Shown one piece after another: positions 24,802 through 63,854 of a stretch of 64,000 nt of DNA. Within the stretch, counting starts at the first letter, position 1, and every line of letters begins with the position of its first letter. A program made the position numbers and the translations under genes. The notes beneath the pieces are model-generated. The model was given only the letters and a program-made list of their open reading frames with translations. It ran no database searches and had not been told where the DNA came from. Source of the stretch: a virus (lineage: Duplodnaviria > Caudoviricetes); IMG/VR virus record IMGVR_UViG_3300033069_000690, positions 1 through 64,000 of that record; one strand, 5' to 3'.

Positions 24802-24805
24802 ATCT

Positions 24806-26017: not shown

Positions 26018-27215
26018 AAGGTACACGCTGAATGAAACGTTTCTAAGACTCTTCATGGAGAAATTTGGTCCTAATGGATTTGATAAGGATATTATTACTG
26101 CTTACCTTAGAAATAATCGTAGTTTTAGGAATGGTTTTATAGAAGTATATCAAACAAAAAAATACGCCTATTTACATTTAGGGCAAAATGTATTTAGAGC
26201 AAAACGGAAAGTTATAGAGCATTTAATAGTTACTAGAGGAAGACCTACTCCTTGTGTTAATAGCCATGCTAATAAGGATTTTAGAGAATATTATTTTAAA
26301 TTTCCCTATTATATAGCTGTAATAATTACTTACTATCAAGATGCTTTAAACTCAACTTTCTTTAGTGTTGAAGTACCAGGAGTACCTCTATCTAATTCAT
26401 TTACATTACGTAACCAAGAAAACCAAGACGATTCTTCTCCACAACAAAATCTAAAAAGTATGATTCAAAAAGAACATATAGTTGGAGCCGTGACTAAAAA
26501 TCCTGTTAATGTGGTAGTTACAGGAGCAAATAAAAAAGATCAGAGAAATATTGTAGGGTTACCTGTCCTAGATGACAAAGGTAATGTTAAGATTTTCTGT
26601 AAAAGATCTCCTTTACTAGGACTTAGTAAGAACGGTAAGAAAAGTAAAGATAACAAGCCAAAATGGTATATCTTTTCTTATGAAGATCTTTTAATTAATG
26701 ATTTAGACAACTTATCTAAATCTAGAGTAACAGAAAGTTCATCTGTTAAGCTCATTAATAGTTCTTCTAATTGCTTTAACTTAGAATTCAAAGTGAACTC
26801 CTTGAAAGATGAGCAAACAAATGAGGTTCTAACAGGCATTAAAGCTAAGATATTAGAAGAAAAATCTATTTGCAAATTAAAAGGCATCCTTGTTCAAAGA
26901 AACGAAAAAGAAGGACGGACACTATTCTTAACTGAGTATGCTGGTCTTCCTATAAGTTTCCTATCGACCAATTGTGAGCTGTTTAAACCTTCTTTAAAAG
27001 GCTTTAATATTCCTAAAAACAGGAATAAAGTTGAGGGTATAACCTGTAAAATTGTTCGTAATAAACAGACCATATTCAATATGGATGAGAGGGTTAAAAT
27101 CCTCAAGTTTGAGAAAAACTCAAAAACACCACAAAGACACTATTTCACTGTACAATCACTAGAAACTCCTAGCAAAATCAGTACAGTTTACTCGCATAAC
27201 TTAAAAGTAATCTAA
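25881..27215 (+). CDS. large hypothetical protein (true start uncertain; TTG 25995 or ATG ~26056 are possible)
   Basis: 444-codon frame; TAATG coupling to the ATP-grasp gene. Confidence 0.7.
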   Translation: MKKFFSLRRVKIFLTTLRNLVCIMLLLNTKLSSRILRSLKKEGWYERYTLNETFLRLFMEKFGPNGFDKDIITAYLRNNRSFRNGFIEVYQTKKYAYLHLGQNVFRAKRKVIEHLIVTRGRPTPCVNSHANKDFREYYFKFPYYIAVIITYYQDALNSTFFSVEVPGVPLSNSFTLRNQENQDDSSPQQNLKSMIQKEHIVGAVTKNPVNVVVTGANKKDQRNIVGLPVLDDKGNVKIFCKRSPLLGLSKNGKKSKDNKPKWYIFSYEDLLINDLDNLSKSRVTESSSVKLINSSSNCFNLEFKVNSLKDEQTNEVLTGIKAKILEEKSICKLKGILVQRNEKEGRTLFLTEYAGLPISFLSTNCELFKPSLKGFNIPKNRNKVEGITCKIVRNKQTIFNMDERVKILKFEKNSKTPQRHYFTVQSLETPSKISTVYSHNLKVI

Positions 27216-49300: not shown

Positions 49301-52300
49301 AACTATCCACGTCAAAGTCAGATCCATGCAAAGCTACAAGCTCTTCAGGAGCAATAATGATGTTACTACTAGAATTAGTAGACGCTACCACTTTAAAAGG
49401 AATAGCAGAGTGAATACCCGTTGTAGGGATACGCACTGCATATTGTAGTTTAGTTAGGAAGTCAGGATATACTATTTCACCATCCTTATAACCTTTCATA
49501 TTTAACCACCAAGCAGGAGCAATAACCTCAGCTACCCTTCCTGTGTAAGAGTTTACATCTGATTTCATTAGAAGCTTAGTAGGAACCATGTAAACAGATT
49601 CATCATTGATATCGTCTACCATTTCCTTCTCAGCATCAGTTAACTGTGAGTAATCTCTAATGAACTTTTTGTTCTCTTCCCATGTAGTAAAGTTATTGTT
49701 CAAAGCATATGCACCAAACTTAGCACGTAAGCCACGTTGAACAGAATGAGGTAATGTGTAGAACTTATCTACCATCTTCTTCTGTGCTTCAGAGAGTTGT
49801 TTATAAGTAAGGACTTGTCCACCTACTCTATGTACACCTACACCCTTAGGTGTCTGTAGTACAAGCTTACTACCTCTACCATGTACAGCTTTAATGCTTT
49901 TCTTAGAAGCAGATGACATAAAGCTAATATGAACCTTACCTACTAATGCGGGGAAGTTCAAAGGAACTACATACTCATTATTTTCTTTAGCCCCAAGTAA
50001 TTCAGCAAATCTTTCACTACCAGGTACATCACTAATAGATTCAATAATAAGTCTTCTAACTTCTTTCTCATTATAAGTAAATGTACCATCAGGATTCTTA
50101 ACATAATTTAAACGCTTTTTAAACTTATCAAATGATAGATTTGTAAGTAAACCATCTATCTCATAGATAGCTTTAGCTACATCAGCATTCTGACCATTCA
50201 CATTAATAAAGTAAGTCAACTGACTAAAGTTAGTAATCTCCCCCTCAGTAGAACGTGGATTAGATTGGATTGAATAATGTTTAGTAGGTACTATTACAAC
50301 ACCATTATGATCTTTATTAGATTCTAAGTGCTGGGAAATAGTCTCACCATTCTTTAATGTTCTTGCAGGTCTTCCTACCTTAAATGCAGAAGCCATATGC
50401 AATTCCATAATATTATTCTTTTCCATTTCTTGAGCTAACTCCTTAAGCTCAGGGAACATTTCCTGTAGAGCTGGTGTTAATTCAATACCCGCATTCTTAG
50501 AGAATCTAGAGATACCAAACTTATCAATGAAGTAGAGTACAGGCTTAATAACATCTCCTAACTGGTAGAAATGACTATAACCAGCCTCTAAGTGATTTCT
50601 CCATTTAGGAAGATAAAACATTTGAGCATCTGTTAATTTATAGTCAATTCCATATATACCTTCTAGACCTTTTGCAAAGTCATTCCATTTATTAAAATAA
50701 TGAGAATCATCATCTGCAACCATAATAGCAATCTCAGTAGGCATACCAATAACATCATTAGCCACTCCTAATTGTCCCGGAGATACAGGACCACTAGCAC
50801 GTTTAGTTAAGTCAGCATTATGTTTGTATTGTCCTATATCACCTGTGTAAAATTGGTTAATGAAATGACCATTCACATAGTTGAGTTTATAGAATTCTTG
50901 TACCGCTATATAAGTATGTAACATTTGATGATACTTATATTGAGGGTACTCTATATCACGTTTCTTTAACTGGGATTTAAATTGTTCTTCGTAGTTTTTA
51001 TAAGCACCATCATTAATGAGCTCATAAGTTTCTAATTTTCTAATTAGAGCTGCCATTAATGTTGGTGAGTTATGTTCAATATCTTCACCATGTTCTCTTG
51101 TAGAGAAAGCTTTATTTGAGTCTAAGTAAAAGAAAGCTTCATTAGCATCATGATTAAATCGGTTCTTAACCATATTTAGCAACTGCTTACGACCTTGATC
51201 TGTTTTTAACTTCTCAGCTATTTCTTTATCAGGTAACCCATCAAAGAATCTTAAAGTAGCTTGTTCCTTATCACCAGCTATCTTCATACCATCAGCATAC
51301 TTTCTCCCATTGGTTTCCACAGGATGACTAGCTAAGCTATCCATCCATTCTCTTCTCTCTATTTGTTGTGTTAGAGCTGCTATAATATGAGCATCTGTAG
51401 CACTATGAGAACTAATAGGAATCTCATGTCCATAAATCTTAGGCTTATTAGAAAGAGTATAACAGAATTGAATATACTTACCCTCTTTTAAGTTTTTAGT
51501 ATTTAACATAGCTTCAAAACCATAACTAAACATACGAGTAACCCACCCAATTGTTTGCTCGTTCTTATACTTAGTTGATATACTATCATCACTATGTGTT
51601 ACACCGTTAATTCTTAATTGGGTCTTATGAGAATCATGTTCTATTAATCTACCTAGACCTATTTTTAAGTAAGGATTATGCTTAAAGAATTTATATCCTA
51701 AGTTTTCCTTACGTAAGAAATCAGGCATTTGGAAAGCACCACCACGAGATTCCCTTACCTTAGTTAAGTACTCATGAATACGTGTTAACCAACTACCAGT
51801 TACAAACATATAATTACGTTGCTTATCTCCTGTAATATAACTAGTGTTACCTCCAAAGTTTCTAGTGGTAGCAATTATATCTACAATAGCTCCTACATAA
51901 CCATTAATGTCATTTAATAGCTCATCTTTTTTTCCATTAGTTGATAAGTCGTTATTTTTCACCAATTGGAATATATTTTTTAAAGAAGCTAGTATAACCT
52001 CACCTTGGTTCTCAGTACCAAAGAATTGTGAGAAGTTCTTTACATCTAGTAACTTAAATATTGACTGTACCTTGTTAACAGATCTCATATCCTTATTACC
52101 TATAATAGAAAGTACAGCATCTGCTTTATCTTTTCTAGTTTCATAATTAGACTCAACTACTTTAATAACTGATTCTTTAATACGATCATCAACAGATTCC
52201 TGAGCACCTATTGCACGATTCTTTATATACCTATGATACATCCTATATATAGGATTAGTATTCTCATCTGTTTCCCCATCCTCATTTTCTAAACGGGTAA

Positions 52301-55300
52301 TACCTACAAAAGGATCTCTAGTAATTAGGCTACCAATACCAGAACGTAATCCAGCAATGAAATCTGCTGCATGTCCTTTTCTATAAGTAACAAGTAATAA
52401 GTTATACAATTGCTCATTACTCATATCAGCTGTAGACTCTTTACCAATCATAACTGGATGAGCTTTGAGTTGTTTAGCTGCTTGATAAATAAATTTACCT
52501 GTATCTTGCTTTCTACCATCGCGCATAGAAACTTTAGAGTATCTATGGATGATATCACCATTCTCATTAAAGATTAATAACTTATTGTTAGTCATCTTTA
52601 TTAAAGGAGATATTCCTCTTATTTCCTTCTTTCCTTCCTTAGATATAAATTCGTACCTTCTTGAAGAAAAAGCTAAAGTATACATCTCCGATAAGAAATT
52701 AAATACAGCTTGAGCTTGAATATTATTTTTACCACCAATCTGATCTGCATTATAAGCTAGTTGTTTTAAGAAATATTCTGATGAGAAATCTGTACCAACT
52801 AACATTTGTTTAGCTAACATGAATACTACTGATCGTGGTATATGATGTATTACCTCTGTTTTAGTAATAGGTAAACCAGATTTGCTAATCATAGGTTCTC
52901 CCTTACTATTAAGTACAGGAACTTCTTTAGTTACAAACAATGTACTCAATAAGTTCTTTACATTTTCTAATAAGGAAGATGAAAAGTCAAGTTGATTAGT
53001 ATCTAAGATCTCATCACGTAATGATGGGTCTTGTAACATCTCCTCCTCTTCCATGGTTAGTTTATTACCTGAAGAAATAACTAAACTACGATAAACTTCC
53101 TTGAATACATCTAGCTTACCGTTATAAGTAAGCAACTTAGAAAGCCATGCAGGTACTTCTTTTCCTTCTCTAGTAAGTTGTAGCATCTGGTCTATGAAGT
53201 CTTGTCTAACAGCATCTTCAGCTTCTTCAATTGTTAAAGGTACATTGAATAAATCAGTAGTTGTTGCTTTAACTTCTTTACCATCTTTAGTAGCTTTTAC
53301 TTCTCTTACTCTTACATCTACTCCTCTAAAGGAACCATCCTTATTTGTGATAGGAGGCCATATCTTAACTCTAATAGCTTTTAATATAGCTTCTGTAGCT
53401 TTATTAAAGTTATCAACATGATCACCATATTCTTGTCCTCTAGTACCAAACCACTCTTTAATTTGAACTAAGTCAGCAGCACCTTCACCATTTAATTGAG
53501 CATTCTTATCAAAGTTATATACACCCTCGTCAATAGCTTCAAATAATTCATTTAACTGTTTCATTTGCTTATATTTAAAGCTGATAATACTTCTTAAGTA
53601 AATAAAGAATTTATGCAATGCTTTAGCTACAAAATTCATATCTTGATTAAAAGCTTGATACTGTCTAGCTAACCATTCCTCTATTTCCCTATCAGGGCTA
53701 AATTGGTCCCCCATAATATCTCTAGCTGTCTCCAACATACTAGAATACTCTTGGGCTGTTAAATAAGTTTTAGCTACTCTATGGAATGCCTCATGTCGTA
53801 GGATACGTGAATAGATAGTACCATCATCATTCGTTTGTAAGTAGATTATACCTCTCTCATAACGTCCCCAACGTGATCCTCCAAAACGACGGATCATATC
53901 TTCCCTAGTTAAGAATACAATGTTCTCTGGGTTAGAAGCAAACTTTTCACCAAATATCTTAGTAGCTGCTTTGATGATAGTATCTCTACTAACAGCAGGA
54001 CCTAAATCTTCCACACTTACAACTTCTTCTGCTAAATCATATCCATTAATATCTTCATCATCATCTGTATTAGAAGAGTTATTGTCAATATGTTCATCAT
54101 CAATATTAATTACAGAATCATTTACAGTATCTTCAGAAGCCCTCTGAGCTGGTTCTTCTTCACTTGTATAACCTGGAACTTCTGATGGAGTAGCTTGGTC
54201 TAGTATAATCTCAGTAGGCTCAATAGATTCTAAATCAGTTTCAAATTCCTCTGCCATGGCTTCCCAGGTATTTCTACGTTCAGCATCATCTTTATTAGGC
54301 ATACGGATCTCATCCATATTAGTTGGCATACGTAATCCAAATCCATCATTAACATTACTCTCTCCCTCAGATGTAAATGCTTGATCTCCAATCATCATCT
54401 CTAAGGTTTCTGTTGTTAGCGGTAATGATGTATGGTGAGTTATATTACCTTTATTATCTTTATGAGCATAAGCTGGTAGTCTACCACGCTTACCTGTATT
54501 AACCCAATCTTGAATGTCTTTAGCACCTAAAGCAGCTAATAAAGAAATACCAGTAAAGTACTCTCTACCTGAATCAGGTTTTCTTTTATTAACACGAATG
54601 AACTGACGCTCTCCTGTCTTAGTATTAAAGAAAGAAGAGTTAGCTTGTGCTATCCTATTAAATGTTTTTTCAGCAGGACCGCTAGCTCTTGAGTTCAAGA
54701 CCATGTTGTTACTAATGAAATCAATCATAAAATCAGTAGGATTAATATCAGCATTAGTTACTTGTCCTCTAGTTATTAAAGAACCGCTTTTCTTAAAGTT
54801 TTTATAAACACGTCCTTGATCATCCACAAGTTCTTTTACGTGAATGTCATAATTAGCTGGTCCACCTTCTTTAGGCATATCAATCTTGACATGGAGATTA
54901 TTATAATCAAATACCTTTCTCCATACTTGGCTTCCATCAGTTTTCTCTATTAAGAAGTACCCAGGATAATTTGGATGCTCTGTATACTTCTTACCATCAA
55001 TAGTTTTATTTCCTTCTACTACCTTACGGCTTCCTTTAGTTCCAGTAATTAAATACTTACTTAAGTAAGCACCATTACTCTCATCTACATTAACAGGAGC
55101 TTTAGTTTCATCTAATCCAATCTCATTACCTGTAATAGATTCATATACAGCTTCTCTAATAGCTTTGATTAAGTCTAGTACTTTAGCCGTATCTTCCTTA
55201 GCATCAGATAGCTTAGCCATGATATCATCATGAACTTTAGAACCCGTATTAAGGAAATGGGTAAACACCTCAGATTGCGTACGTTGGAATGTCTGACCAT

Positions 55301-58300
55301 CCTTAGTAGTATAATCAAAGTCCTCAACGAAATCTAACCCACCCATGATGATAGGATTACCACCAATAGTAATCTTCTCTAATATACTTTGTAGTTCCTT
55401 AACATCACCTAAGAACTTCTGTAATGGTGCTAAGAAGTTAGCATCAGTACCTTTATTAATTCTACGACGAGATAATGGTACATGTATAGTTTCTGTGTTA
55501 CCAGATACATGTTGAATATGTTGTACGTAGTAAGCAATACCAGGTTTAACAACTTTAGGATTAAAGCCCCTATCTCTTACTTCCTTAGCAGTGTAAATAG
55601 CTAAATCCCAAGACTCTCCTTTAGTATTAGAGTTACCTTTCATTAGGTATTTAACTATAAGGTCATTACGTTTAGATTTTAGGAACTCTGCAAAGTTTGT
55701 TAGAGCTCCCCAATTAAGTCTCTTGTTCTTTATAGTATTTACTCTAGCTCTACCTAAGATAGCGTCAGGATGAATAGCGATTTTTACTTTAGTAGTAGTA
55801 ACTCCTTTAAAAACTGTAGTTTCTTCTAATTCTGTAAAAGTTTCTGTATCCCATTCAGGATCATTTAAACGCTCTTTAAGGAAATCAGGAAGCTGATGTA
55901 CATCAGCACTGTTAACTTCGTTCTTACCAATAACACCTACCTTAGTAATAGTACCATCAGAATTTATCTTTAGAATAGTAACACCAAAAGCTACATTACC
56001 ATTAGGTAGATCATATCTAGTGCGTACATATAAAACCTCATCTCCCTGCTTAAGCATAGGAGCATCATCTTTAGATTGCTTAGTAGCGTAGGACTGTGGA
56101 TAACGAATGTTATGAACAGATCCTTGTATATCAATAGGTAGAGATTCTTCTACTATACTCTCTTCTTTTATAGATTCATTTATCTCTTCTTTATTCTCTT
56201 CTCTTACTTCCTCATCAGCATCTTCAGTAATTTCTGTATCTGTCTCATCCTCAGTTGTTGTAGTAGGAGTAGCTTGAGATTGTGCTGAAGCTTGAGAAGG
56301 GTTTGGTGTTAATCCAAACTCAGCTTTCTTCAAAGCTTCTAATTGATCTTCTAATGTTTTAACGAATGCATCTATCTCTTCTTGAGTAGGGGCATTACGA
56401 ACTTCATTAGGTAATAAGTTTTTACTGGAATTAGTAAATCTTATGTTATTACTAGCTACAGCTACAAAGCTAGTAGCACGTGATGTAGCTACATACATAG
56501 CTTCATTAAATCTAGTAAAATCTACTTTACCATTATTTAATGATCCTGGAGCAGCAGCTAGATCCCCAATTGGTTCTAAAAGTATATAAGCCTCATCAAC
56601 TGTGTGACTCTGTGCTTCTAGATAATTGAATACCTTAACATCAGTAATACCAAGTTTAGTTAACTGTGTTCTCATAGCTTCTGCTACCTGATCGTTGTTA
56701 ACAATTAATAACTTAGTACGCCCATTGTTCTTAGACTTCTCCATTAAGGTGATTAGCTGTTCAGCAGTTTGTACACCAGTAGTACCGAAAGAGTGATTAT
56801 CTCTATCAGTCATAGAGTACATAGCAACAGCATCAGGTATTTCTCCTTTGCCTTTGAACTCTTTCTGTAAGGAAATAATATCAACATCATCTGTTCTATA
56901 AGTAACAGTTAATGGATCAATCATAAACGTATTTACTAATGATGTAGACTCAGTGAAGGAAATAGTATCTCCTCTAGTAATCTGTGAAGGATCTCCTAGC
57001 ATTAGTAATTTTATAGGCTCAGATCTTAAAGCATTTACTTTAGCTATCTTCTCATTAATTTTTGTTAAAGTATCAGCAGTAACTAATCCTGCTTCGTCTA
57101 ATATGATTAAATCTTTTTTAGCTAATTCCGCCTCATCTGTAGCTAGGAACTTCTGTATAGGATTTTCCTCATCTATACCAGTAGTTTCACCAATAGAGTT
57201 AAGCAAAGTATTATTAGCAGACTTAGTAGGAGCTAATGCAATTACATTGTCTTTAGTAATGTTTAATACTTTAAATAATAACTTGATAGCTACTTGTGTC
57301 TTACCACTACCTGCAAAACCAACAAGAGAAGCGTTCTGTTGTCCAGAGTAGAACCAATCTACTAGCTGACGTAGAGCTATAATTTGTTGCTTAGTTGGGA
57401 TAAGATTAAAACTTTTAAACGCTGCAATCTCATTCTGTAGATGAGTAATAGTATTGAATTTAGATTCCACACGATTACGTAAAGCAGACAGAGCTACCAT
57501 ATCTTGATGTGTGTTTAATAGGTGATCAAAGAAAGCTATTTGTTGTCCCTCATCTACTCCTTCAAATCTACCTTCCGTCTGTACTATCTTCTCTAATCCT
57601 TTTATAAGGACAGATAAATCTGTTGACTTCCTATAATCAGAGATGATTGATTTACCATCGAATGCAATCTCAGGGTAGATAGCCATTAACACCTTACTAA
57701 AGAAACGCTTAGGATTACTTAGATAACCTACAATACCATTATTACTAACCCCATCTGTTTGAGTGGAACTAGTAGCTCTTAGAAATTCCACAACATCTAA
57801 CATCATAGAGTTATAAGTTGTTTTTAATTCCTCATTAATTTTATCAGTTAATGCTTTCTTATCAGAAGTATTATTAATCATACTCTCTAAAGCACCTAAA
57901 GCATATCCATGTTCTAAGTAATAAACACCATTAGCATCTTGTACTAGTAGTTTTCTTAATTCTTCTATAATCTTCTCTACTAAATCATCAGAGAACATTC
58001 CTAAATTATTACCAAGCACCTGATTAATATTTTCTGATGGCTCATAACTAATACCCATCTGATTTGCAATCGCTTGGGTACTTGTAGTATAACTCTTTTG
58101 TTGAGCTAAGTCCTTATCAGCAATACGTTTCTTTACTGCTTCTTGGGCTTCAGTTAACTTCTCTTTTAATTCATTAATAGTTTCACGAACATTCTTAAAT
58201 GACTTATCAGAAGTAGTCTGTAAATGCTTGTGATCATTCAATACATTCTCAAGCCACTTTAATCTCTTCTCTAAGTAAGAAAGATTAGATGTAGCTAAAT

Positions 58301-60986
58301 AGTCATCATCATTAATAGCTTGGTTTGTTTCCTTAGCTACTTCGTTTAAATAGTGGTCATGTACGAACTCAGCCTCTACCTCATTACGAGTTCTTGATTG
58401 AGCTACATGTGGAGCAGTAATTTTATCTGTATTATCTCTCACATCACTATCTACTTTATCTAAGCGAGTGATATTATTTTTAATCTCTTGGAGCTTATCA
58501 GCATATTCAGTCTCATTCTCTCCACGAGCTTGTTTCATTAACTGATCTAACTCATCAACTGTATTAGCTTCTGAGGATTCTCCTATACTATCTTGAATGT
58601 CCTTAACCTTATTAAGTTCTCCTCTACGGCGATCCTCAATACGGTTATGGATTTCAGTAACATCATCTTCTTCTAACTTAGCATCAGCCGTACGAACATA
58701 AGCCACAACATCTAAGATGTCATGACCTAATGCTAACATACGTTTAGCCATGTTTGTTTTCTCACGTTGTCTAAGTAAAGAAGTAGAGTAGATATCTGCA
58801 AGGTGATCTGCTCCAGCTGTCTCTCCTATACCGCGAGTCATCTCTCCGATTCCTTGCTTATAAGCTAGTACATTCTTCTGAGCTTCTGTACCTTCCTTCC
58901 ATATCTTTTCGTTAGCCTTACGTTCTCTAGTGAACTCCCCACTAGCAATTTTCTTATTCTCTTCTAGTAACCTAGATATCTGTCTTTGTTTGAGTGCAGT
59001 AAATATCTCGAAGTCATCGTAGATCTCGTTTAAAGATTGCTTAGTCTTTTCAGGATCTAATAATTCTTTAAACAATTTAGTACGTCTACGTTCCTTTCTT
59101 TCCTTTTCTCTAACACTATCGTTGAGAGGATCTTCAGCATTCTTAATAGAAGTAGGTGATGATGTTCTTCCTAACTCATCTGCTTCAGATGCCATGTTAG
59201 CAGCTGTAGCTTCGAATAGTTGTGACTCTAACTCATTCACCATTAAACTATTTCTGATAGCTTGTTTCCTATCATTCCTTGATATACCACGGAAGTCAAA
59301 TAACTCTAACACACCACCTAGGTAGTTAGCATCATCTATCTTCTCATACTCTTTCTTAGCGGCTTTAAACCTAGCAATCTCCTGTGCAGCTGTTTGAGGT
59401 GTGAACCCATTAGTTCCCATCTCTCCCATCTTCCTTACATGATCTACGAAGTAATCTTCCTTACCCTTATTTAGGATGTCCTCATACACACCATACTTGT
59501 ATTGCATGTAATCAAACTCATTACCTAAACTAGATGCAGAACCTAATAGGTTACCTGCTTTATGGTATCCATAGAAGTCACTTACTATTGAGATAGGATG
59601 CATGAATGATAAAGCCCCAGTAGCAATAGCACCAGCATTAACTGATGATCTAAACTCTGAATCTGCATATAGGTTTCTATCTCCTTTATAGAACATAGCT
59701 TTCTCTACTTCCCAACGATCTTCACCTACTTGTCTAGACACATCAAGACCAGGTAAATTAGTTTCTTTAGACCAGTCTATACCTTTTACATTATCTTTAA
59801 ATCTAGGTTTGTTTCCTAATACACCATCTAAGTATTGTTGAGTAAATAAGAACTGACTACCTTCTTCATTCATCTCTGAATTGAGAGTTAACCCCATAGT
59901 ACCAGCCTTCATAGCTGTACGTGCCCAACGGTTACCCATGCCAATAGTCTCAGCTAATTTAGTATAAGGGGTTACTGCTAATCCTACCTCTAACATATCT
60001 CCATACATTAGGGCCATGTTCTTAGCACGTAATCTATCCATACCCTCATCAGCTTTTAAACGCATTTGACGTAAAGCTTTCTGATGCTCAGGCTTTTGTA
60101 GATCCTCTTGTGTAAGCTGGTTCTGTTCCATGTACTTACCTATCTGAGTTTGGTATGCCTCATTCCAAGCATCTCCCATCTCAGACTTTGTTTCAAGATC
60201 TCTAGACTTCCATGTAGCAGCTAACTCTCCAAGAGTAAATCCTATTGTAGTAGCAGCTTGGTATTGCTTAGGAATAGGTAAAGCAGAACTTGCAGCCATA
60301 CGTTCTAAAGCTTTTTTAGCAACCCATGGAGCTATGATCTGTGTCATTTGTATACCAAGCATACTAGCACTACTACCTACATCTGTACCAGCTTCATACT
60401 TTAAGTAATCAGCAATATTAGTATTAGGTTCCTGTGCATAGATTTGTTGCATGATCTTATCTGGTAAGTCGAGATTACGTTTAGCCATCTCTTCTACACC
60501 TCCACCAATCATTCCTGTTAAACCGCTACCATGTTTTATTTCCTCCTCTAATCTATTCTTCTCAGCTAGAGAGTCAGCAATATACTTTTCTTTCTTAGCT
60601 AATGTTAACTCTAACTTCTTACTAAGCATATCAGTAAGATATTGATTGTTTGAGTCTTGAGCAACTTGCAATTGCGAACGAACGTCATCTGCATAGTTAT
60701 CAAACTCATCTACCTTCTTATCTATCTGACGTATCTGATGTTGGGTAGAGCTTACACCTGCTTGAGCCATAGCATTAAGGAAACTGTTTACAGTAATACC
60801 ATTACCGTAACTGGTTTGCATTAAGTTAGGACTTAAGGAAAGCTTAGGGTCATTGTGTAATAGTACAGGAGTATCTGTAACTCCCTTTAAGAAATTCTGC
60901 TCTGATGCAAAACTACTTGATGGGGCTATTCCCTGTAAGGCTTGGAATCTTTCTGTGAATGATGTAGGATTATTTCCTTCTGGCAT
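46380..60986 (-). CDS. giant crAss-like virion RNA polymerase with SF1 helicase and zincin domains
   Basis: RIPTTG...HGSDFDVD (D3890-D3894, 49305-49319); GFAGSGKT at 1223, LDEAG, LGDPSQ, EAQS.T and YVATSRA; HEAFH at 2398. Confidence 0.9.
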   Translation of the reverse strand: MPEGNNPTSFTERFQALQGIAPSSSFASEQNFLKGVTDTPVLLHNDPKLSLSPNLMQTSYGNGITVNSFLNAMAQAGVSSTQHQIRQIDKKVDEFDNYADDVRSQLQVAQDSNNQYLTDMLSKKLELTLAKKEKYIADSLAEKNRLEEEIKHGSGLTGMIGGGVEEMAKRNLDLPDKIMQQIYAQEPNTNIADYLKYEAGTDVGSSASMLGIQMTQIIAPWVAKKALERMAASSALPIPKQYQAATTIGFTLGELAATWKSRDLETKSEMGDAWNEAYQTQIGKYMEQNQLTQEDLQKPEHQKALRQMRLKADEGMDRLRAKNMALMYGDMLEVGLAVTPYTKLAETIGMGNRWARTAMKAGTMGLTLNSEMNEEGSQFLFTQQYLDGVLGNKPRFKDNVKGIDWSKETNLPGLDVSRQVGEDRWEVEKAMFYKGDRNLYADSEFRSSVNAGAIATGALSFMHPISIVSDFYGYHKAGNLLGSASSLGNEFDYMQYKYGVYEDILNKGKEDYFVDHVRKMGEMGTNGFTPQTAAQEIARFKAAKKEYEKIDDANYLGGVLELFDFRGISRNDRKQAIRNSLMVNELESQLFEATAANMASEADELGRTSSPTSIKNAEDPLNDSVREKERKERRRTKLFKELLDPEKTKQSLNEIYDDFEIFTALKQRQISRLLEENKKIASGEFTRERKANEKIWKEGTEAQKNVLAYKQGIGEMTRGIGETAGADHLADIYSTSLLRQREKTNMAKRMLALGHDILDVVAYVRTADAKLEEDDVTEIHNRIEDRRRGELNKVKDIQDSIGESSEANTVDELDQLMKQARGENETEYADKLQEIKNNITRLDKVDSDVRDNTDKITAPHVAQSRTRNEVEAEFVHDHYLNEVAKETNQAINDDDYLATSNLSYLEKRLKWLENVLNDHKHLQTTSDKSFKNVRETINELKEKLTEAQEAVKKRIADKDLAQQKSYTTSTQAIANQMGISYEPSENINQVLGNNLGMFSDDLVEKIIEELRKLLVQDANGVYYLEHGYALGALESMINNTSDKKALTDKINEELKTTYNSMMLDVVEFLRATSSTQTDGVSNNGIVGYLSNPKRFFSKVLMAIYPEIAFDGKSIISDYRKSTDLSVLIKGLEKIVQTEGRFEGVDEGQQIAFFDHLLNTHQDMVALSALRNRVESKFNTITHLQNEIAAFKSFNLIPTKQQIIALRQLVDWFYSGQQNASLVGFAGSGKTQVAIKLLFKVLNITKDNVIALAPTKSANNTLLNSIGETTGIDEENPIQKFLATDEAELAKKDLIILDEAGLVTADTLTKINEKIAKVNALRSEPIKLLMLGDPSQITRGDTISFTESTSLVNTFMIDPLTVTYRTDDVDIISLQKEFKGKGEIPDAVAMYSMTDRDNHSFGTTGVQTAEQLITLMEKSKNNGRTKLLIVNNDQVAEAMRTQLTKLGITDVKVFNYLEAQSHTVDEAYILLEPIGDLAAAPGSLNNGKVDFTRFNEAMYVATSRATSFVAVASNNIRFTNSSKNLLPNEVRNAPTQEEIDAFVKTLEDQLEALKKAEFGLTPNPSQASAQSQATPTTTTEDETDTEITEDADEEVREENKEEINESIKEESIVEESLPIDIQGSVHNIRYPQSYATKQSKDDAPMLKQGDEVLYVRTRYDLPNGNVAFGVTILKINSDGTITKVGVIGKNEVNSADVHQLPDFLKERLNDPEWDTETFTELEETTVFKGVTTTKVKIAIHPDAILGRARVNTIKNKRLNWGALTNFAEFLKSKRNDLIVKYLMKGNSNTKGESWDLAIYTAKEVRDRGFNPKVVKPGIAYYVQHIQHVSGNTETIHVPLSRRRINKGTDANFLAPLQKFLGDVKELQSILEKITIGGNPIIMGGLDFVEDFDYTTKDGQTFQRTQSEVFTHFLNTGSKVHDDIMAKLSDAKEDTAKVLDLIKAIREAVYESITGNEIGLDETKAPVNVDESNGAYLSKYLITGTKGSRKVVEGNKTIDGKKYTEHPNYPGYFLIEKTDGSQVWRKVFDYNNLHVKIDMPKEGGPANYDIHVKELVDDQGRVYKNFKKSGSLITRGQVTNADINPTDFMIDFISNNMVLNSRASGPAEKTFNRIAQANSSFFNTKTGERQFIRVNKRKPDSGREYFTGISLLAALGAKDIQDWVNTGKRGRLPAYAHKDNKGNITHHTSLPLTTETLEMMIGDQAFTSEGESNVNDGFGLRMPTNMDEIRMPNKDDAERRNTWEAMAEEFETDLESIEPTEIILDQATPSEVPGYTSEEEPAQRASEDTVNDSVINIDDEHIDNNSSNTDDDEDINGYDLAEEVVSVEDLGPAVSRDTIIKAATKIFGEKFASNPENIVFLTREDMIRRFGGSRWGRYERGIIYLQTNDDGTIYSRILRHEAFHRVAKTYLTAQEYSSMLETARDIMGDQFSPDREIEEWLARQYQAFNQDMNFVAKALHKFFIYLRSIISFKYKQMKQLNELFEAIDEGVYNFDKNAQLNGEGAADLVQIKEWFGTRGQEYGDHVDNFNKATEAILKAIRVKIWPPITNKDGSFRGVDVRVREVKATKDGKEVKATTTDLFNVPLTIEEAEDAVRQDFIDQMLQLTREGKEVPAWLSKLLTYNGKLDVFKEVYRSLVISSGNKLTMEEEEMLQDPSLRDEILDTNQLDFSSSLLENVKNLLSTLFVTKEVPVLNSKGEPMISKSGLPITKTEVIHHIPRSVVFMLAKQMLVGTDFSSEYFLKQLAYNADQIGGKNNIQAQAVFNFLSEMYTLAFSSRRYEFISKEGKKEIRGISPLIKMTNNKLLIFNENGDIIHRYSKVSMRDGRKQDTGKFIYQAAKQLKAHPVMIGKESTADMSNEQLYNLLLVTYRKGHAADFIAGLRSGIGSLITRDPFVGITRLENEDGETDENTNPIYRMYHRYIKNRAIGAQESVDDRIKESVIKVVESNYETRKDKADAVLSIIGNKDMRSVNKVQSIFKLLDVKNFSQFFGTENQGEVILASLKNIFQLVKNNDLSTNGKKDELLNDINGYVGAIVDIIATTRNFGGNTSYITGDKQRNYMFVTGSWLTRIHEYLTKVRESRGGAFQMPDFLRKENLGYKFFKHNPYLKIGLGRLIEHDSHKTQLRINGVTHSDDSISTKYKNEQTIGWVTRMFSYGFEAMLNTKNLKEGKYIQFCYTLSNKPKIYGHEIPISSHSATDAHIIAALTQQIERREWMDSLASHPVETNGRKYADGMKIAGDKEQATLRFFDGLPDKEIAEKLKTDQGRKQLLNMVKNRFNHDANEAFFYLDSNKAFSTREHGEDIEHNSPTLMAALIRKLETYELINDGAYKNYEEQFKSQLKKRDIEYPQYKYHQMLHTYIAVQEFYKLNYVNGHFINQFYTGDIGQYKHNADLTKRASGPVSPGQLGVANDVIGMPTEIAIMVADDDSHYFNKWNDFAKGLEGIYGIDYKLTDAQMFYLPKWRNHLEAGYSHFYQLGDVIKPVLYFIDKFGISRFSKNAGIELTPALQEMFPELKELAQEMEKNNIMELHMASAFKVGRPARTLKNGETISQHLESNKDHNGVVIVPTKHYSIQSNPRSTEGEITNFSQLTYFINVNGQNADVAKAIYEIDGLLTNLSFDKFKKRLNYVKNPDGTFTYNEKEVRRLIIESISDVPGSERFAELLGAKENNEYVVPLNFPALVGKVHISFMSSASKKSIKAVHGRGSKLVLQTPKGVGVHRVGGQVLTYKQLSEAQKKMVDKFYTLPHSVQRGLRAKFGAYALNNNFTTWEENKKFIRDYSQLTDAEKEMVDDINDESVYMVPTKLLMKSDVNSYTGRVAEVIAPAWWLNMKGYKDGEIVYPDFLTKLQYAVRIPTTGIHSAIPFKVVASTNSSSNIIIAPEELVALHGSDFDVDSLFAVRTEILFKKEGGIKRLLTLKNPDGTIVVEPGQRLGWPHGFEIDNFEQMNMIQGSTDTELKFNEFDKQLTTYKELMKKYEDLMNSKDIDRDIKKEYTANYKLAYEAYEGTLKNKKAYAMIYMLLHDRNEKDMGQPISFDPIKKDFFDLDLELYHPSKSIKVYGKDGSVTPEFIDLMKQDSPDIEIVQKFKEWGITAENISKVIAIDPEANTFKITNKEIKNNIFKDNSIGVITKLKLIYGRADMNETRNPNNLLDQLKTYNDNFAGVALTGAFANFVKALAYVNYVSQGSHMVDKEGKAVTLKLNEGYNSISKTEKSKGFTGRKVWEVLDTLINGAIDNVKEQALEIINATNQTGPTIALMVGLGVPLNDITLFMRQPVLVRDLVSLRGKQRTKWVTEEAKKFTKKELRSPLTTEDLILALEESTKVGNEYSKLSHKAKLTQVKVFREFNKLQPVVDAMSNAASVANLTKDFEVTFEEGQQMIDKINKSKEYTGFANGSFMSLPQFSSAEDAFITSFDLVNNAVDIYNPKLISKLANLITSYMKKTAYTEDGIETENIDSTIRREFTRYLITSASNSSEIDAIWKQPLEIKNGDKSFYVTGADAWIQHFGKVINDLASNSEYAHNAFLEKLTAVKSKGLYRIKWNAGTNLNDSTVSAQLKHDLSLLPPFFIEQLVKYSALENGHEYGLKSFSQLLDPLDIAEQAKTYNALLKSFIKDGPLFDKIKDHFAISFALNNPSQIAKHQGQQERYLPAIKWLSVKNMTTYGITNPHEADFILDYNDVKYEDKKSKEEKTIKYAKPPVFLRTTNKVNGKESLAVKIKDEGKVAYYRTITRVNKKSRGYDANLSYLTTGYYINDHFNLPHEILGVPPTEAGNPELTYKLDKVSPHQLLKVGDTVFVHDYTDFYNNNLEYYEVTEVKQGGKEEITRYGETYTNLKDVTYTLKKQEKSKVNFSDEENAQIQDIIKNNTGC

Positions 60987-60987
60987 G

Positions 60988-61635
60988 TTAATTGTCTAAG
61001 TATTTGGCAAATGTTGTAAGGTAATCGAATACTGTACTGTTCTTTGGCAGTACACCTTTATTATGTTTCTTAATGAATTGATTTAAAACATGTTGTGCTG
61101 CTCCATGTGCTGTTGTAACATCTAGGTTAGCATCATGTAGTTTACTCTTAAAGGTACTTAAATATACCTTAGCACCCCCCACTCCTTGGAAGTGGACTAG
61201 TGCTGTTAATAAGTCGTCTTCAATGAAATTATATTGTTGTTTCAGCTTAGCTACAATAGGTTTATAATCTGTATTAAATACATACTCTGCATATTGTTCT
61301 TGAGCTTGTGGTGAATTTAAAAACTCATTTTTAGTTTTAACCCCAGTTACTTCTTGGATACGTTTCCAATGCCCACTAGTTTTACCATCTTTCCTATTTA
61401 AATCTCTAATAGGATCTCCATAAAGAAATTGAAATTTACCAGCAGCTGTAGAATTAGGATTAGTAGCTTTGTAAGGATCTGGTACGTTAGACTCTACCCT
61501 ACCAATAGCTTTAGAAAACTTTTTAAACTCTGTACCAGCGTCACTTACCGTTTCCTTCGTATCCCCATTGAGTTGCTGGTTGTTGCTCCCTGGGGCTGAT
61601 AGGGGTTTGAGGTAGTAGTACCGTCTAATAATGCT
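60988..61635 (-). CDS. lysozyme/transglycosylase-like domain in a 215-codon frame without a usable start codon (probably a -1 frameshift extension of the upstream gene)
   Basis: Manual translation gives AIGRVES...YKATNPNSTAAGKFQFL...FLNSPQAQE...HFQGVGGA with no Met; the ORF track captures only the last 64 aa; the stop lies 1 nt before the RNAP ATG. Confidence 0.8.
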   Translation of the reverse strand, partial: SIIRRYYYLKPLSAPGSNNQQLNGDTKETVSDAGTEFKKFSKAIGRVESNVPDPYKATNPNSTAAGKFQFLYGDPIRDLNRKDGKTSGHWKRIQEVTGVKTKNEFLNSPQAQEQYAEYVFNTDYKPIVAKLKQQYNFIEDDLLTALVHFQGVGGAKVYLSTFKSKLHDANLDVTTAHGAAQHVLNQFIKKHNKGVLPKNSTVFDYLTTFAKYLDN

Positions 61636-63854
61636 TTAAAGGTATCTTTAGAATAAAGACGTCCTCCTGCATAGTTTTCTAATGCTTGTTGGAATGTTAC
61701 CAAGTCTTTAGCCGTTTCCTTATTAGGATGTTGTGTGTAAGCATTTACTAAAGTACTAAAGGCTTGTGATGCAGATGTTCTAATATCTTTATCTATACTA
61801 TTAGTATTAAGAATAAAGTTATTTATACCTGTAACAAAGTTTGTAGCTAGTTTAGGGTTATCAACTATTCTAGTAGTAAGCTCATCAAGATTCTCTTGAG
61901 CCCTATTAGCTGCGTAGTTCTGTTCCCATGGTCCTAAGTTCTTTCCTAATAAAGCATCACTTCCTGCCATATCCCTATTGTACCTAGATACTGTAGCGGG
62001 ATTATTCATTGGTACTTCTATACTTGTAGGGATAGTAATATATTTTTGTTCATCACCTTTAGTATTTACAACAATAGGTTCTATATCTAATATACCAGCA
62101 GCTTTCATACGTTCTACAACCCTATTTATCTCATTAGATTCATATGCCCAAGAAGGCCATATAGCTCCTACATCCAATCTCTGATCATAAGCTCCTATAT
62201 CTGTATTACCAGCAGCTTCTAAAGCATTCTGAATTGTAGTGTAACCTTCTTCAGTAGCAGGTATCATGATCTTACCTTTAATAAATTTACGATCTCCTAT
62301 GTTATAAGTATTATCCGCCCCAACAAATGGTTGCCATGTTGCTGAAGACATTCCTATTAAATTCTTACCTAATTGAACTGTTTGATTCTTAGCTAGATCC
62401 ATTTGAGCTTTATCATAATCTGTTACTAGTTTAGTTAATCCCTCAGTAGTAGAAATATCTATCCCAGCTTTTAGTGCTTCTCTTTGCACAGCTAAGAAAC
62501 TTGGGTCTTCTTTAAATTGAGACAATTGAGATTTTATATCTGCTAGTATAGAAGCTTCTCCCTTATGTAAATCTGTAGATCTCTTAGCAGCATCACCTGC
62601 TACAGCGGTAGCAAATTTACCTGGCGTTAATCCTGAAGTAACATTTCCAACAATATCTCCAAACATAACCTCTGGTTTATACCCAGGAGTTTTTCTTAAT
62701 TCTCCTAAAGCTTTAAGAGATCTCCCTAAAGAACTATTCGTATTAGCTATTGATTCATAGATAGAAGCAGTTACACCCATTTCTGGTGAACTATATTCAG
62801 CTATAGTAGCAGGAGAATTAAATGTAGCTTTAGGGTCAATACTAACTCCAGTAAAGGCATGTAACCTATCATCCCATTGGCTCATATCTAAACCAACAGA
62901 AGATACGATCTCCTTAATGCTAACTGATTTAGACTTTTTAAATACTGCAAAAGGTTCTACTACTTTATCAGAATCAGCTCCTGGTCCTTTAGGATTACCT
63001 GATGGCCCAGCTAATTTGCTACTATCCATTGTTAATTGTTTTGCTCCTCTAAACATAATCATTGCTTTAGCCTGATCCATATTAGAGAGCTCCTCGAACT
63101 TCTTACCACCAAATGTCTGAACAAATCCAGGAGTATCTTTTAAGATGTCATCTGGTCTTATTCCTTTATAGTCTCCTTGCCATTGAGCGAAGACAGGTAA
63201 AGTCATTAGTCCTAATGCTTGTGTTTTTCCTAAGTTTTGTAACCCAGCAAAATCTCTACCATCTACTGTAATAGTAGAAGTTTTTCCATCAGCTCCTACT
63301 ACCTCTCTAGTTTGTAATTGAGTTTTTTCCCAATCATCTATTAAAGGTTTAATAACAGGTTCTAAACTTGTTCGTGACTTATAATTTAATTGGCTGTAGT
63401 CAGTATTCTTCTCAGAGTCCCAGTTGTAAGTATCAGGACCACTAACATACTCATTAGTAGCAGACCATGTAGCATTTCCCTCATTCTTCATCTTCTCTGT
63501 AAGAGCAGTAGTATGTAATGTGTAAGCATCGTTGTATTTATTTAAACGAGGCTGTATCCTATTTACTAATCCGTTAGCCCTAACACTTAATTGTTCTGCT
63601 GTCATAGAAGGATCGCTAACTAGTTTAGATAACTCATTATTAAACTCTTCCCTGATGGCTGGTAAGTGCACACGCTCATCTACTGAGCCGCTAATAGCTT
63701 TAGCTTTAGAGAAGACATCATTAAAGTTCTCTTGTGCTGTACCCACAGCTTTATCCCAACGTTGTTGTTTCATATCCGCAGCTTTCATTACCAAGTCATA
63801 TGGTAAGATAGGTGGGTTGTATTGCGGTATATGTTCGTACCTATTGATTCCCAT
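61545..63854 (-). CDS. virion cargo (ejection) protein
   Basis: 769 aa, directly upstream of the vRNAP gene; N-terminal YNPPILPYDLVMKAA followed by a coiled coil, typical of crAss-like cargo proteins. Confidence 0.75.
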   Translation of the reverse strand: MGINRYEHIPQYNPPILPYDLVMKAADMKQQRWDKAVGTAQENFNDVFSKAKAISGSVDERVHLPAIREEFNNELSKLVSDPSMTAEQLSVRANGLVNRIQPRLNKYNDAYTLHTTALTEKMKNEGNATWSATNEYVSGPDTYNWDSEKNTDYSQLNYKSRTSLEPVIKPLIDDWEKTQLQTREVVGADGKTSTITVDGRDFAGLQNLGKTQALGLMTLPVFAQWQGDYKGIRPDDILKDTPGFVQTFGGKKFEELSNMDQAKAMIMFRGAKQLTMDSSKLAGPSGNPKGPGADSDKVVEPFAVFKKSKSVSIKEIVSSVGLDMSQWDDRLHAFTGVSIDPKATFNSPATIAEYSSPEMGVTASIYESIANTNSSLGRSLKALGELRKTPGYKPEVMFGDIVGNVTSGLTPGKFATAVAGDAAKRSTDLHKGEASILADIKSQLSQFKEDPSFLAVQREALKAGIDISTTEGLTKLVTDYDKAQMDLAKNQTVQLGKNLIGMSSATWQPFVGADNTYNIGDRKFIKGKIMIPATEEGYTTIQNALEAAGNTDIGAYDQRLDVGAIWPSWAYESNEINRVVERMKAAGILDIEPIVVNTKGDEQKYITIPTSIEVPMNNPATVSRYNRDMAGSDALLGKNLGPWEQNYAANRAQENLDELTTRIVDNPKLATNFVTGINNFILNTNSIDKDIRTSASQAFSTLVNAYTQHPNKETAKDLVTFQQALENYAGGRLYSKDTFKALLDGTTTSNPYQPQGATTSNSMGIRRKR
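61602..61608 (-). promoter_or_regulatory. predicted -1 ribosomal frameshift heptamer A_AAC_CCC with a downstream stem
   Basis: X_XXY_YYZ in frame (codons N750-P751), 6-nt spacer, then a CCCCA/TGGGG stem (61595-61591 / 61567-61563). Confidence 0.55.

Follow-up and report, generated by a model that had tools for sequence, protein, structure and literature searches.

A predicted programmed −1 frameshift would add a lytic transglycosylase-like domain to a cargo-position protein of a crAss-like phage

How does a long open frame that has no start codon in front of its catalytic region, and that fills the space between two large phage genes, come to be translated? The window analyzed here is a 64,000-nt stretch (positions 1 to 64,000 of IMG/VR record IMGVR_UViG_3300033069_000690), and all of the features described below lie on the minus strand. 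ORF1 (61545–63854) encodes a zero-frame product of 769 aa and 84.4 kDa and ends at a TAA stop (61545–61547). From this stop to the ATG (60986) of a downstream gene of 4868 aa (46380–60986) there are 558 nt, where an earlier sequence-only reading of this DNA had counted 557. The frame in question, ORF2, runs stop-to-stop from 61635 to 60991 (215 codons), with a TAA at 60988–60990, one nucleotide short of the 4868-aa gene's ATG, and our coordinates were the same as those first reported. It is in the −1 frame relative to ORF1 and overlaps its last 30 codons, as had been estimated, the overlap measuring 91 nt. ORF2 contains no ATG. Of ATG, GTG and TTG codons it has just one, the GTG at 61182, which comes long after the catalytic Glu codon (61494–61492) and bears out the claim that the first GTG follows the catalytic region. 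In the public assemblies examined, the domain encoded by ORF2 was either missing from the gene calls or annotated as a catalytically dead fragment of 87–167 aa (575 aa once).

The genes around ORF1 are ordered as a muzzle gene, a gene of ~900 aa, ORF1 and a giant RNAP/helicase gene, which places ORF1 in the slot of crassvirus cargo protein 2. The muzzle gene (crAss_MUZ) is at 68846–72796 of the record, on the same strand as ORF1, and the order was the same in relatives. The 4868-aa product of the giant gene has an SF1 helicase domain (AAA_30 match, E 3.7e-13, residues 1203–1337), a HEAFH motif at 2398 and a DFDVD motif at 3890. The Atlas clusters nearest to ORF1 were crAss_CARGO2 (language-model score 0.92, 184/256 features), but the Pfam crAss_CARGO2 model (PF25712) gave no match at E values up to 1–10 in ORF1, in seven homologues or in the six-frame translation of the genome, and for this reason a virion or ejection role is drawn from synteny. 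By gene order and language-model resemblance ORF1 is a putative cargo protein; the “cargo/ejection protein” label it had been given fits its gene position and cluster resemblance, and lacks the PF25712 match. Cultured relatives of the phage were looked for and none were found.

The ORF2 product holds a lytic transglycosylase-like domain at residues 23–206 of the −1 frame (60991–61542), with Glu-Ser codons at 61494–61489. A profile built from 54 homologues matched phiKZ gp144 (PDB 3bkh) and 9xps_S at E 9e-10, the gp144 alignment covering the Glu-Ser, G-x-[YF]-Q-F and H-F-x-G-x-G motifs; a shallow 7-sequence ORF2 profile reached only E 0.4. Among the 54 homologues E39, S40, G57, Y59, Q60, F61, H139 and G142 were invariant or nearly so. 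In an AlphaFold model of ORF2 (pLDDT 85.9, with residues 1–22 below 50), E39 and S40, both at least 90% conserved, were found at the end of the first helix (residues 23–39), in register with the gp144 Glu-Ser. For this model the best Foldseek and VIA-align matches were lytic transglycosylases throughout (Foldseek probability 0.95–1.0), with structural Z scores of 10.2 for Cj0843, 9.8 for gp144 (over 145 residues at 3.5 Å) and 8–9 for MltF, MltE, MltC and Slt. The window's ORF2 had no Pfam or PHROG match, and PF06737 gave weak matches in 10/54 homologues (best E 2e-4). Judged by profile and modeled fold, ORF2 is a phiKZ gp144-like, family-1-type lytic transglycosylase (lysozyme-like) domain with predicted activity, in agreement with what had been read from its ES...AAGxYQF motif. 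The same domain was found in-frame at the C-terminus of 700–1300-aa phage proteins in a representative library, at the C-terminus of a 495-aa protein of the cultured Leptolyngbya phage Lbo-JY46, and as standalone versions with their own ATG in other phages.

The −1 overlap was kept in ten independent lineages from different samples. Loci homologous to ORF1 were L001, L002, L003/L004, L005, L006, L007, L026, L079 and L080, among which ORF1 identity drops to 21–30%; at L010 and L029 homology to ORF1 was undetectable, yet the −1 overlap architecture was present. Across loci ORF2 was always in the −1 frame, overlapping the last 19–36 codons of ORF1, and its distance from the start of the downstream giant gene in relatives lay between a 4-nt overlap and a 6-nt gap. 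Nucleotide identity rose from 43–74% in the last 300 nt of ORF1 before a slippery heptamer (see below) to 59–98% between the heptamer and the ORF1 stop. The dN/dS of ORF2 was 0.14–0.31, indicating purifying selection, the frame was open for 178–667 codons in every lineage, and its conservation exceeded that of ORF1. These values, together with the invariant catalytic motifs, argue strongly against ORF2 being the untranslated relic of a formerly separate lysin gene, and we hold that account to be extremely unlikely, even though a relic would explain the missing start codon and the lack of database matches to the window copy.

The same comparison bears on whether the two frames are an artifact. 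Single-base errors commonly split genes, and given the in-frame C-terminal fusions of this domain in other phages, an assembly or sequencing indel could have broken one continuous ORF of 955 codons. However, two overlapping frames were found in every one of at least 10 independent assemblies from different samples and pipelines, with the ORF1 stop and the conserved tail of ORF1 past the site retained in them; none of these relatives carries the single continuous ORF that the sequence-only reading had said would overturn it. ORF1 homologues were 752–772 aa long (n = 6) and none was ~955 aa, and only in L029 is the site a long homopolymer. An indel therefore receives almost no weight from us.

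A frame without an ordinary start might still be a separate gene, begun at a non-canonical codon or by re-initiation after ORF1, and would then yield a free transglycosylase of ~190–215 aa. The standalone versions in other phages give this a precedent, gene callers found no ordinary start, and the window, L001, L002 and L003 each have an ATT or ATC within a few codons upstream of the heptamer, in the −1 frame. Against it, in L080, L079 and L010 the stretch from where the −1 frame opens to the catalytic Glu is free of ATG, GTG, TTG, CTG, ATT, ATC and ATA, and in the remaining lineages no candidate start codon was kept at one position. The only candidate in L005 is a GTG one codon before the Glu, and the only one in L006 is an ATA four codons before it, in a frame that opens exactly at the heptamer. 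The first 22 residues of ORF2 make up a disordered linker and not a folded N-terminus, and in the window the ORF2 frame has no start codon near the ORF1 stop. On this evidence we regard a separate gene as improbable.

What the overlap does contain is the heptamer A_AAC_CCC (61602–61608), which is in the ORF1 frame at Ser749-Asn750-Pro751 and where we propose that tandem −1 slippage occurs. With the −1 frame opening at 61635, the heptamer lies inside the open overlap; heptamer, 6-nt spacer and CCCCA/TGGGG stem were all present as first described. ORF1 has only 3 in-frame X_XXY_YYZ sequences per 770 codons, giving a chance of ~11% that one hits the 30-codon overlap, and A_AAC_CCC was the sole one retained at its position among relatives. 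It was invariant in 8 loci (L001, L002, L003, L005, L006, L007, L026 and L080), including its seventh base, though the −1 codon there is Leu, Gln or His by lineage. When the ORF1 family is aligned, the Asn750 and Pro751 columns do not vary. The heptamer was replaced by A_AAU_UUU in L079, by G_GGA_AAG in L010 and by an A10 run in L029. We consider the heptamer non-random because its position is conserved and because other lineages have different slippery heptamers equally far from the stem. In L006 the −1 frame is closed by a TGA directly preceding the AAA, and in L080 it becomes open a single codon ahead of the heptamer; entry into the −1 frame must therefore take place at the heptamer or beyond it.

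The same frame could also be reached by two successive +1 (quadruplet) decodings at two CCCC tracts, maybe via a phage tRNA with an 8-nt anticodon loop. In the window, reading CCC-U and then CCC-A as quadruplets enters the ORF2 frame with no stop met, and ARAGORN drew a window tRNA with a 4-base anticodon. That anticodon, GGUG, would nevertheless read CACC, which is absent from the overlap; the second in-frame CCC is missing in L005, and the site lacks any CCC in L079 and L010. We find double +1 decoding scarcely credible.

Among the sequences that replace the window's heptamer, A_AAU_UUU and G_GGA_AAG rank among the efficient heptamer classes in E. coli (PMC4066793). In E. coli reporters the sister motif A_AA.C_CC.A, like two other heptamers, did not reach threshold despite a strong pseudoknot, and the C_CC.C tetramer was only moderately shift-prone (PMC4066793), therefore the shift efficiency at A_AAC_CCC may be low or dependent on host tRNA.

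The heptamer is followed by a 6-nt spacer (61596–61601; 4–6 nt across all lineages), which falls in the ~5–9 nt expected of a canonical cassette, and by a stem-loop (61563–61595) that we propose as the stimulator, made up of a lower stem CCCCA/UGGGG, a 2x2 internal loop, an upper stem GAG/CUC and a 13-nt loop. Its energy in the window was −12.3 kcal/mol (z about −2.4 versus shuffles), and those of relatives were −11.3 to −19.1 kcal/mol, with z ranging overall from −2.4 to −4.6; the window's stem is the weakest and most interrupted within the family. A related stem-loop was present 4–6 nt past the slippery site in nine lineages, and L029 has an unrelated weaker hairpin (−8.0 kcal/mol) at 4 nt. 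Lineages have conserved stem arms but differ in the loops and in both encoded peptides, and across 7 lineages 88.9% of cells were paired versus 24–68% with the partner slid. No double compensatory substitutions were seen in the hairpin across these 7 lineages and the arms also code in two frames, so the case for the hairpin is one of conservation, energy and position.

A sequence further downstream, GCUGGU (61534–61539), is complementary to ACCAGC in the loop (61580–61575) and could form stem 2 of an H-type pseudoknot. This duplex was estimated at −11.0 kcal/mol, a value equalled in 2% of shuffles. L003 has a compensated pair, ACCAAC/GUUGGU, and in L080 the complementary sequences are different and unrelated ones, AGGGCA/UGCCCU (p 0.01), while pairing was weak in L006, L079 and L010. 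We put the pseudoknot forward tentatively.

The conserved hairpin 4–6 nt downstream is a signature of ribosomal slippage, and in this it speaks against slippage by RNA polymerase, which would produce an mRNA sub-population with one extra base. Transcriptional slippage has been noted for A7 runs (PMC4066793), and the junction of L029 is an A10 run, a length well known for slipping; the site in the window and in most relatives offers no more than A3C4, U4 or G3A3, which are too short. Transcriptional slippage is for us a very unlikely source of the −1 frame.

The conserved overlap, slippery sites, stem and absent starts all support the programmed frameshift that the sequence-only reading had proposed, and we think it highly probable that the 3′ end of this putative virion (cargo-position) gene of a crAss-like phage carries a programmed −1 ribosomal frameshift cassette. 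The majority of ribosomes would end at the ORF1 stop, 61 nt 3′ of the heptamer, and release the 769-aa, 84-kDa protein. A fraction would stall at the stem-loop, or maybe pseudoknot, 6 nt downstream of A_AAC_CCC, where the P-site tRNA-Asn and the A-site tRNA-Pro would slip back by one base (AAC to AAA, CCC to CCC). Shifted ribosomes would go on through a flexible, low-complexity linker of ~20 residues (61543–61601), predicted to be disordered, into the lytic transglycosylase domain of 184 residues. This would give a fusion of 955 aa (105.1 kDa), with the junction ...TTSNPLSAPGSNNQ..., and both product sizes agree with those foreseen earlier (769 aa and ~955 aa, ~105 kDa). A sub-stoichiometric share of ORF1 copies would carry a peptidoglycan-cleaving head, and by analogy with T7 gp16 this head may open the cell wall locally as the internal proteins are ejected before the DNA. 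Frameshifting and its frequency are here predictions from the nucleotide sequence; both forms are presumably packaged, and the domain would be catalytically active and, if the analogy holds, act at entry. We found no published report of this arrangement in the literature.

Because a single nucleotide separates the ORF2 stop from the ATG that begins the 4868-aa gene, and the zero-frame stop is 558 nt upstream of this ATG, only frameshifted ribosomes would reach it. It is a doubtful but conceivable extension that, via termination-reinitiation coupling, the slip frequency sets the amounts of the wall-cutting form and of the giant virion polymerase that are made per cargo protein. If true, one recoding event would act as a stoichiometry dial for the ejected proteome.

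Crassvirales are the dominant human gut phages and are also widespread elsewhere. The crAss001 virion atlas lists cargo proteins without peptidoglycan-degrading activity (PMC10172136). The present locus offers a candidate for cell-wall crossing in one crAss-like lineage, namely a putative ejected protein of which a minority of copies would bear a lytic transglycosylase head. Since automatic gene calling systematically hides the domain, recoding-aware annotation of crAss-like genomes would be worthwhile. For the recoding field the lineages provide a natural series of interchangeable slippery sequences (A_AAC_CCC, A_AAU_UUU, G_GGA_AAG and the A10 run), three of the four preceding one homologous stimulator, in hosts largely without Shine-Dalgarno-based initiation.

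Cargo protein 2 of crAss001 (gp46, PF25712) shares with ORF1 the gene order of muzzle, cargo 1, cargo 2 and RNAP-associated giant (PMC10172136); members of the PF25712 family are ~540–580 aa long, compared with 769 aa for ORF1, which does not match their HMM. The crAss001 structure paper likens crassvirus cargo proteins to T7 ejection proteins and mentions neither a frameshift extension nor a peptidoglycan hydrolase (PMC10172136). The closest solved relative of ORF2, phiKZ gp144 (PDB 3bkh), differs in being a free endolysin with an N-terminal peptidoglycan-binding domain, and its identity to ORF2 is only 16–18%. A further relative in mechanism is the tail-assembly-chaperone frameshift G/GT of phage lambda (G_GGA_AAG), which tailed phages conserve widely. 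The likeness to it is that of a −1 slip on X_XXY_YYZ near the 3′ end of a virion-morphogenesis gene, giving a short and a C-terminally extended product in fixed ratio, here predicted from sequence. Both arrangements persist across lineages without sequence similarity, and L010 shares the lambda heptamer. The genes and their virion role are different, an enzyme domain takes the place of a tape-measure-binding domain, and a conserved downstream stem-loop is present here. Frameshift-extended structural proteins are also known from T7 10A/10B, from the capsid and tail of Listeria phages PSA/A118, and from SPP1 gp17.1*; of the earlier statement that T7 internal/capsid genes use frameshifts, the capsid part holds through gene 10A/10B, and we found no support for the internal genes. 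In these systems too, recoding puts an extra C-terminal module on a subset of copies, but the modules are external structural or Ig-like decorations and not an enzyme on an internal ejected protein. In the proposed job, local opening of peptidoglycan at entry, the fusion is most like T7 gp16, an internal core protein of a podovirus-type virion that is ejected ahead of the DNA and has a lytic transglycosylase fused to it. The gp16 domain is N-terminal, in-frame and on every copy, whereas the domain described here is C-terminal, would be reached by recoding only, and would be carried by a minority of copies.

The window makes up the initial 64 kb of an IMG/VR virus record of 90.5 kb. Upstream of ORF1 (63854-61545, minus strand; 769 aa, 84.4 kDa) and on the same strand, the record has a muzzle gene that matches crAss_MUZ (PF25731, E 1e-98). 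The order in relatives is muzzle, a gene of ~860-900 aa, the ORF1 homologue, a gap, and a giant gene of 3700-6300 aa. In the window the last position is held by a gene (46380-60986, minus strand, start at 60986) for a 4868-aa protein with an SF1 helicase domain (AAA_30, residues 1203-1337), a zincin-like HEAFH motif (2398) and a DFDVD motif (3890). All three are combined in a single chain, and one relative's version, of 6324 aa, has an extra PD-(D/E)xK match. In crAss001 the order is muzzle gp44, cargo 1 gp45, cargo 2 gp46 and RNAP-associated gp47 (PMC10172136). Because the gene order and the domains of the 4868-aa protein match this arrangement, we place ORF1 at the cargo-2 position; its nearest ESM Atlas clusters were crAss_CARGO2 (score 0.92). 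Pfam PF25712 had no match in ORF1, its homologues or the genome, and we therefore call ORF1 a cargo-2-position protein and not a family member. Pfam and PHROGs searches with ORF1 and ORF2 of the window returned nothing usable.

The 558 nt between the ORF1 stop and the start of the 4868-aa gene hold no called gene and are occupied by ORF2, which runs for 215 codons from stop to stop (61635-60991, with its own stop at 60990-60988, minus strand) and lies in the -1 frame of ORF1. ORF2 overlaps ORF1 by 91 nt, which is the final 30 codons of the latter. Inside this overlap, in the ORF1 reading frame, is the slippery heptamer A_AAC_CCC (61608-61602, minus strand), followed after a 6-nt spacer by a hairpin (61595-61563, minus strand). 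We propose that ORF2 is a lytic transglycosylase domain joined to ORF1 by a -1 programmed ribosomal frameshift. The computed product of a slip at the heptamer has 955 aa and 105.1 kDa, alongside the 769-aa, 84.4-kDa ORF1 protein, and its predicted tryptic junction peptide would start with ALLDGTTTSNPLSAPGS... and end with the Lys of ...NGDTK. The coordinates in the sequence-only reading all held to within 1 nt.

Comparison of the region's DNA with 50,697 phage records gave no matches; tblastn gave none with ORF1, and with ORF2 found Leptolyngbya phage Lbo-JY46 alone. IMG/VR scans with a single protein query recovered no relatives, whereas an alignment query did. Six database homologues of ORF1 (32-68% identity) were all of 752-772 aa. 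Their contigs came from different sequencing runs, and the junctions were re-read on them. In all six an ORF2 counterpart was found in the -1 frame without a usable start, overlapping the last 19-36 codons of ORF1. Querying IMG/VR and JGI metagenomes with an alignment, and 1.8 billion representatives with a profile, yielded ~630 domain-bearing proteins, most with ordinary starts. Further start-less -1 cases were traced through truncated gene calls: locus L026; L080 and L079, where ORF1 is homologous at 21-30% identity; and L010 and L029, whose upstream proteins (746 and 682 aa) showed no significant similarity to the ORF1-family profile. Two additional contexts share the arrangement at the level of gene layout. 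Among 160 domain-bearing proteins, no in-frame fusion of the domain to an ORF1 homologue was present. In L010 (3411-5411 of IMGVR_UViG_3300044678_001332) the -1 ORF runs to 667 codons and includes a 436-aa region, without a Pfam match, beyond the transglycosylase domain, so that a frameshift there would add ~70 kDa.

If the split were an indel artefact, the real gene would be a single continuous frame. No homologue of ~955 aa was found and the frames were split in all contigs; the error would have to be repeated in at least 10 assemblies, at a non-homopolymeric site, and we therefore do not consider it credible. The same comparison bore out the expected conservation of the overlap and, in most lineages, of the heptamer, with the split frame kept in those assemblies. 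On the contigs of the six ORF1 homologues, gene callers either missed the ORF2 counterparts or called them as fragments of 96-167 aa. The truncated public calls (P0008, P0009, P0010, P0053, P0067, P0104, P0112, P0113 and P0158) are of 87-167 aa (575 aa in one case) and begin no earlier than the catalytic Glu, at a Met, Val or Leu codon inside the frame; as a result, protein databases lack for this clade the half of the domain that holds the active site. The start-less domain was thus concealed from annotation in every assembly examined.

Exactly the window's heptamer, A_AAC_CCC, is present in L001, L002, L003, L005, L006, L007, L026 and L080, and the residues it encodes, Asn750 and Pro751, do not vary in the ORF1 alignment. 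Its seventh base is always C, though the -1 codon starting there is Leu, Gln or His, a sign that the nucleotide as such is constrained. This heptamer is the sole in-frame X_XXY_YYZ of ORF1 conserved in position; the chance of one such heptamer within a 30-codon overlap is, by itself, roughly 11%. Substitutes occupy the same place elsewhere, namely A_AAU_UUU (L079), G_GGA_AAG (L010), the heptamer of lambda G/GT, and a run of ten A (L029), and these variants form a natural heptamer-swap series. The -1 frame of L006 has a TGA directly 5' of the AAA, that of L080 opens one codon before the heptamer, and the -1 peptide 5' of the heptamer is not conserved at all among relatives. Frame entry must therefore lie at the heptamer or just 3' of it.

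Independent initiation of ORF2 at a non-AUG codon would provide the domain as a separate protein. As the sequence-only reading had it, ORF2 lacks a start of its own in the window, where there is no ATG and the sole GTG (61182) is far 3' of the catalytic motif, and its counterparts in relatives likewise lack a usable start. In L080, L079 and L010 no ATG, GTG, TTG, CTG or ATH occurs from the opening of the frame to the catalytic Glu, so that in these lineages an active enzyme cannot come from a start of its own, and we regard this explanation as improbable overall. Transcriptional slippage, in which the frame would be changed in the mRNA, is plausible only at L029 and is a still more remote explanation for the locus as a whole. 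At L029 (2796-2805 of Ga0181568_10032207, a marine-type contig) the ten-A run joins the 682-aa protein and a transglycosylase ORF; ribosomal slippage, transcriptional slippage and homopolymer sequencing error are all possible at this run. For the frameshift itself, an E. coli survey of all 64 heptamers placed G_GG.A_AA.G and H_HH.U_UU.Y among the most efficient classes, with C_CC.Y tetramers moderately shift-prone and A_AA.C_CC.A, the sister motif of the window's heptamer, poor (PMC4066793). From this survey, efficiency at the window's site may be modest or host-dependent.

The heptamer-spacer-stem layout claimed for the window is present there and is kept in relatives, with a hairpin 4-6 nt 3' of the heptamer in every lineage. 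In nine lineages the hairpins had energies of -11.3 to -19.1 kcal/mol (z -2.4 to -4.6), an arm consensus of about C-Y-Y-C-A-G / C-U-G-G-G-G and, in most, an upper G-G-A / U-C-C stem; the L029 hairpin is unrelated and weaker (-8.0 kcal/mol). The cassette of L010 was misaligned by MAFFT and was analyzed by hand and by script; its hairpin arms are common to the window, and the loop and both encoded peptides differ. In a seven-lineage alignment 88.9% of cells were paired, compared with 24-68% when the 3' partner was slid. No double compensatory change was seen among the pairs of this alignment, and support for the hairpin therefore comes from conservation, energy and position, not covariation. Within the loop, the bases ACCAGC are complementary to GCUGGU 22 nt beyond the stem (-11 kcal/mol, equalled by 2% of shuffles), and we tentatively suggest that the two may form a pseudoknot. 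This putative pairing is supported in the window, L001, L003 (a compensated pair, ACCAAC/GUUGGU), L005 and L080 (an unrelated complementary pair), and is weak and unsupported in L006, L079 and L010. From the heptamer to the stop of ORF1, nucleotide identity to relatives was 59-98%, up from 43-74% in the final 300 nt of ORF1 ahead of the heptamer; this rise fits dual coding together with an RNA signal. An Rfam search of 61450-61700 found no families.

The genome also encodes an odd tRNA (13816-13891, plus strand; Rfam tRNA, 42.5 bits). ARAGORN gave it an 8-nt anticodon loop, C-U-GGUG-A-C, with a four-base anticodon and the label Thr|His, whereas the Rfam alignment implies a loop of 7 nt (CCUGGUG). 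The tRNA may decode quadruplets, in the manner of a +1 suppressor, or may simply be odd. Double +1 quadruplet decoding would also reach the ORF2 frame; this and a role for the tRNA were rejected as not conserved, and the probability of such decoding is very small. CACC is absent from the frameshift overlap, and so no link of the tRNA to the proposed frameshift was seen. Separately, two ORFs at 24779-27215 (plus strand) have an apparent 137-nt overlap (25881-26017), the second being in the +1 frame. This was rejected as a second frameshift, since the second ORF most likely starts at an ATG overlapping the first ORF's stop, in an ordinary ATGA arrangement.

ORF2 is under purifying selection (dN/dS 0.14-0.31), and we give next to no weight to its being an untranslated relic. 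It is conserved beyond ORF1, for example with 91% against 52% amino-acid identity to L002. When 60988-61608 was compared with 61609-63854 among loci L001-L005, dS was 0.35 (ORF2) and 0.98 (ORF1) between the window and L002, and 0.009 and 0.60 between L002 and L003. These contrasts suggest module-exchanging recombination with a breakpoint near the frameshift cassette.

ORF2 of the window matched no Pfam model, and PF06737 matched weakly in 10 of 54 homologues. In the alignment of these 54 sequences Glu39-Ser40, Gly57, Tyr59-Gln60-Phe61, His139 and Gly142 (numbered in the -1 frame product) are near-invariant, and the profile matched the phiKZ gp144 lytic transglycosylase (PDB 3bkh, E 9e-10) with motifs aligned. 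A shallow seven-sequence AlphaFold model (pLDDT 67) with ambiguous Foldseek matches was replaced by one on the 54-sequence alignment (pLDDT 85.9, residues 1-22 disordered), whose top Foldseek matches were all lytic transglycosylases (probability 0.95-1.0). VIA-align gave Z 10.2 to Cj0843, 9.8 to gp144 (145 residues, 3.5 A) and 8-9 to MltF, MltE, MltC and Slt. The lysozyme-like transglycosylase first proposed from short motifs was thus upheld by profile, active-site residues and modelled fold. Elsewhere the domain stands alone, at the N-terminus of giant proteins, next to an M23-peptidase-like motif, or as the in-frame C-terminus of 700-1300-aa proteins, as is typical of virion-associated wall-degrading modules. 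In Lbo-JY46 (PP438436.1, 4912-6399; L081), the sole cultured phage with a detectable homologue, it is the in-frame C-terminus of a 495-aa hypothetical protein whose gene directly follows that of a very large protein; this phage could be an experimental handle on domain activity.

Genetic architecture, conservation, selection on ORF2 and fold are demonstrated here; expression, ratio, packaging and activity are proposed. Ribosomes translating ORF1 would encounter the hairpin with Asn-AAC in the P site and Pro-CCC in the A site, and a fraction would slip to AAA-CCC and read on, across a flexible linker, into the transglycosylase domain. The 769-aa and 955-aa forms would both be packaged with other cargo proteins and, at ejection, the few enzyme-bearing copies would cut glycan strands locally, letting channel-forming proteins and DNA cross the wall. 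The proposal is relevant to wall crossing by crAss-like phages. In the literature, of which our coverage was incomplete so that absence counts as weak evidence, we found no report of frameshifting or transglycosylases in Crassvirales, nor of a peptidoglycan hydrolase among crassvirus cargo proteins. Extension of a phage virion protein by -1 frameshifting is well known. In T7 the same wall-opening job is done by gp16, which opens the cell wall through its N-terminal transglycosylase.
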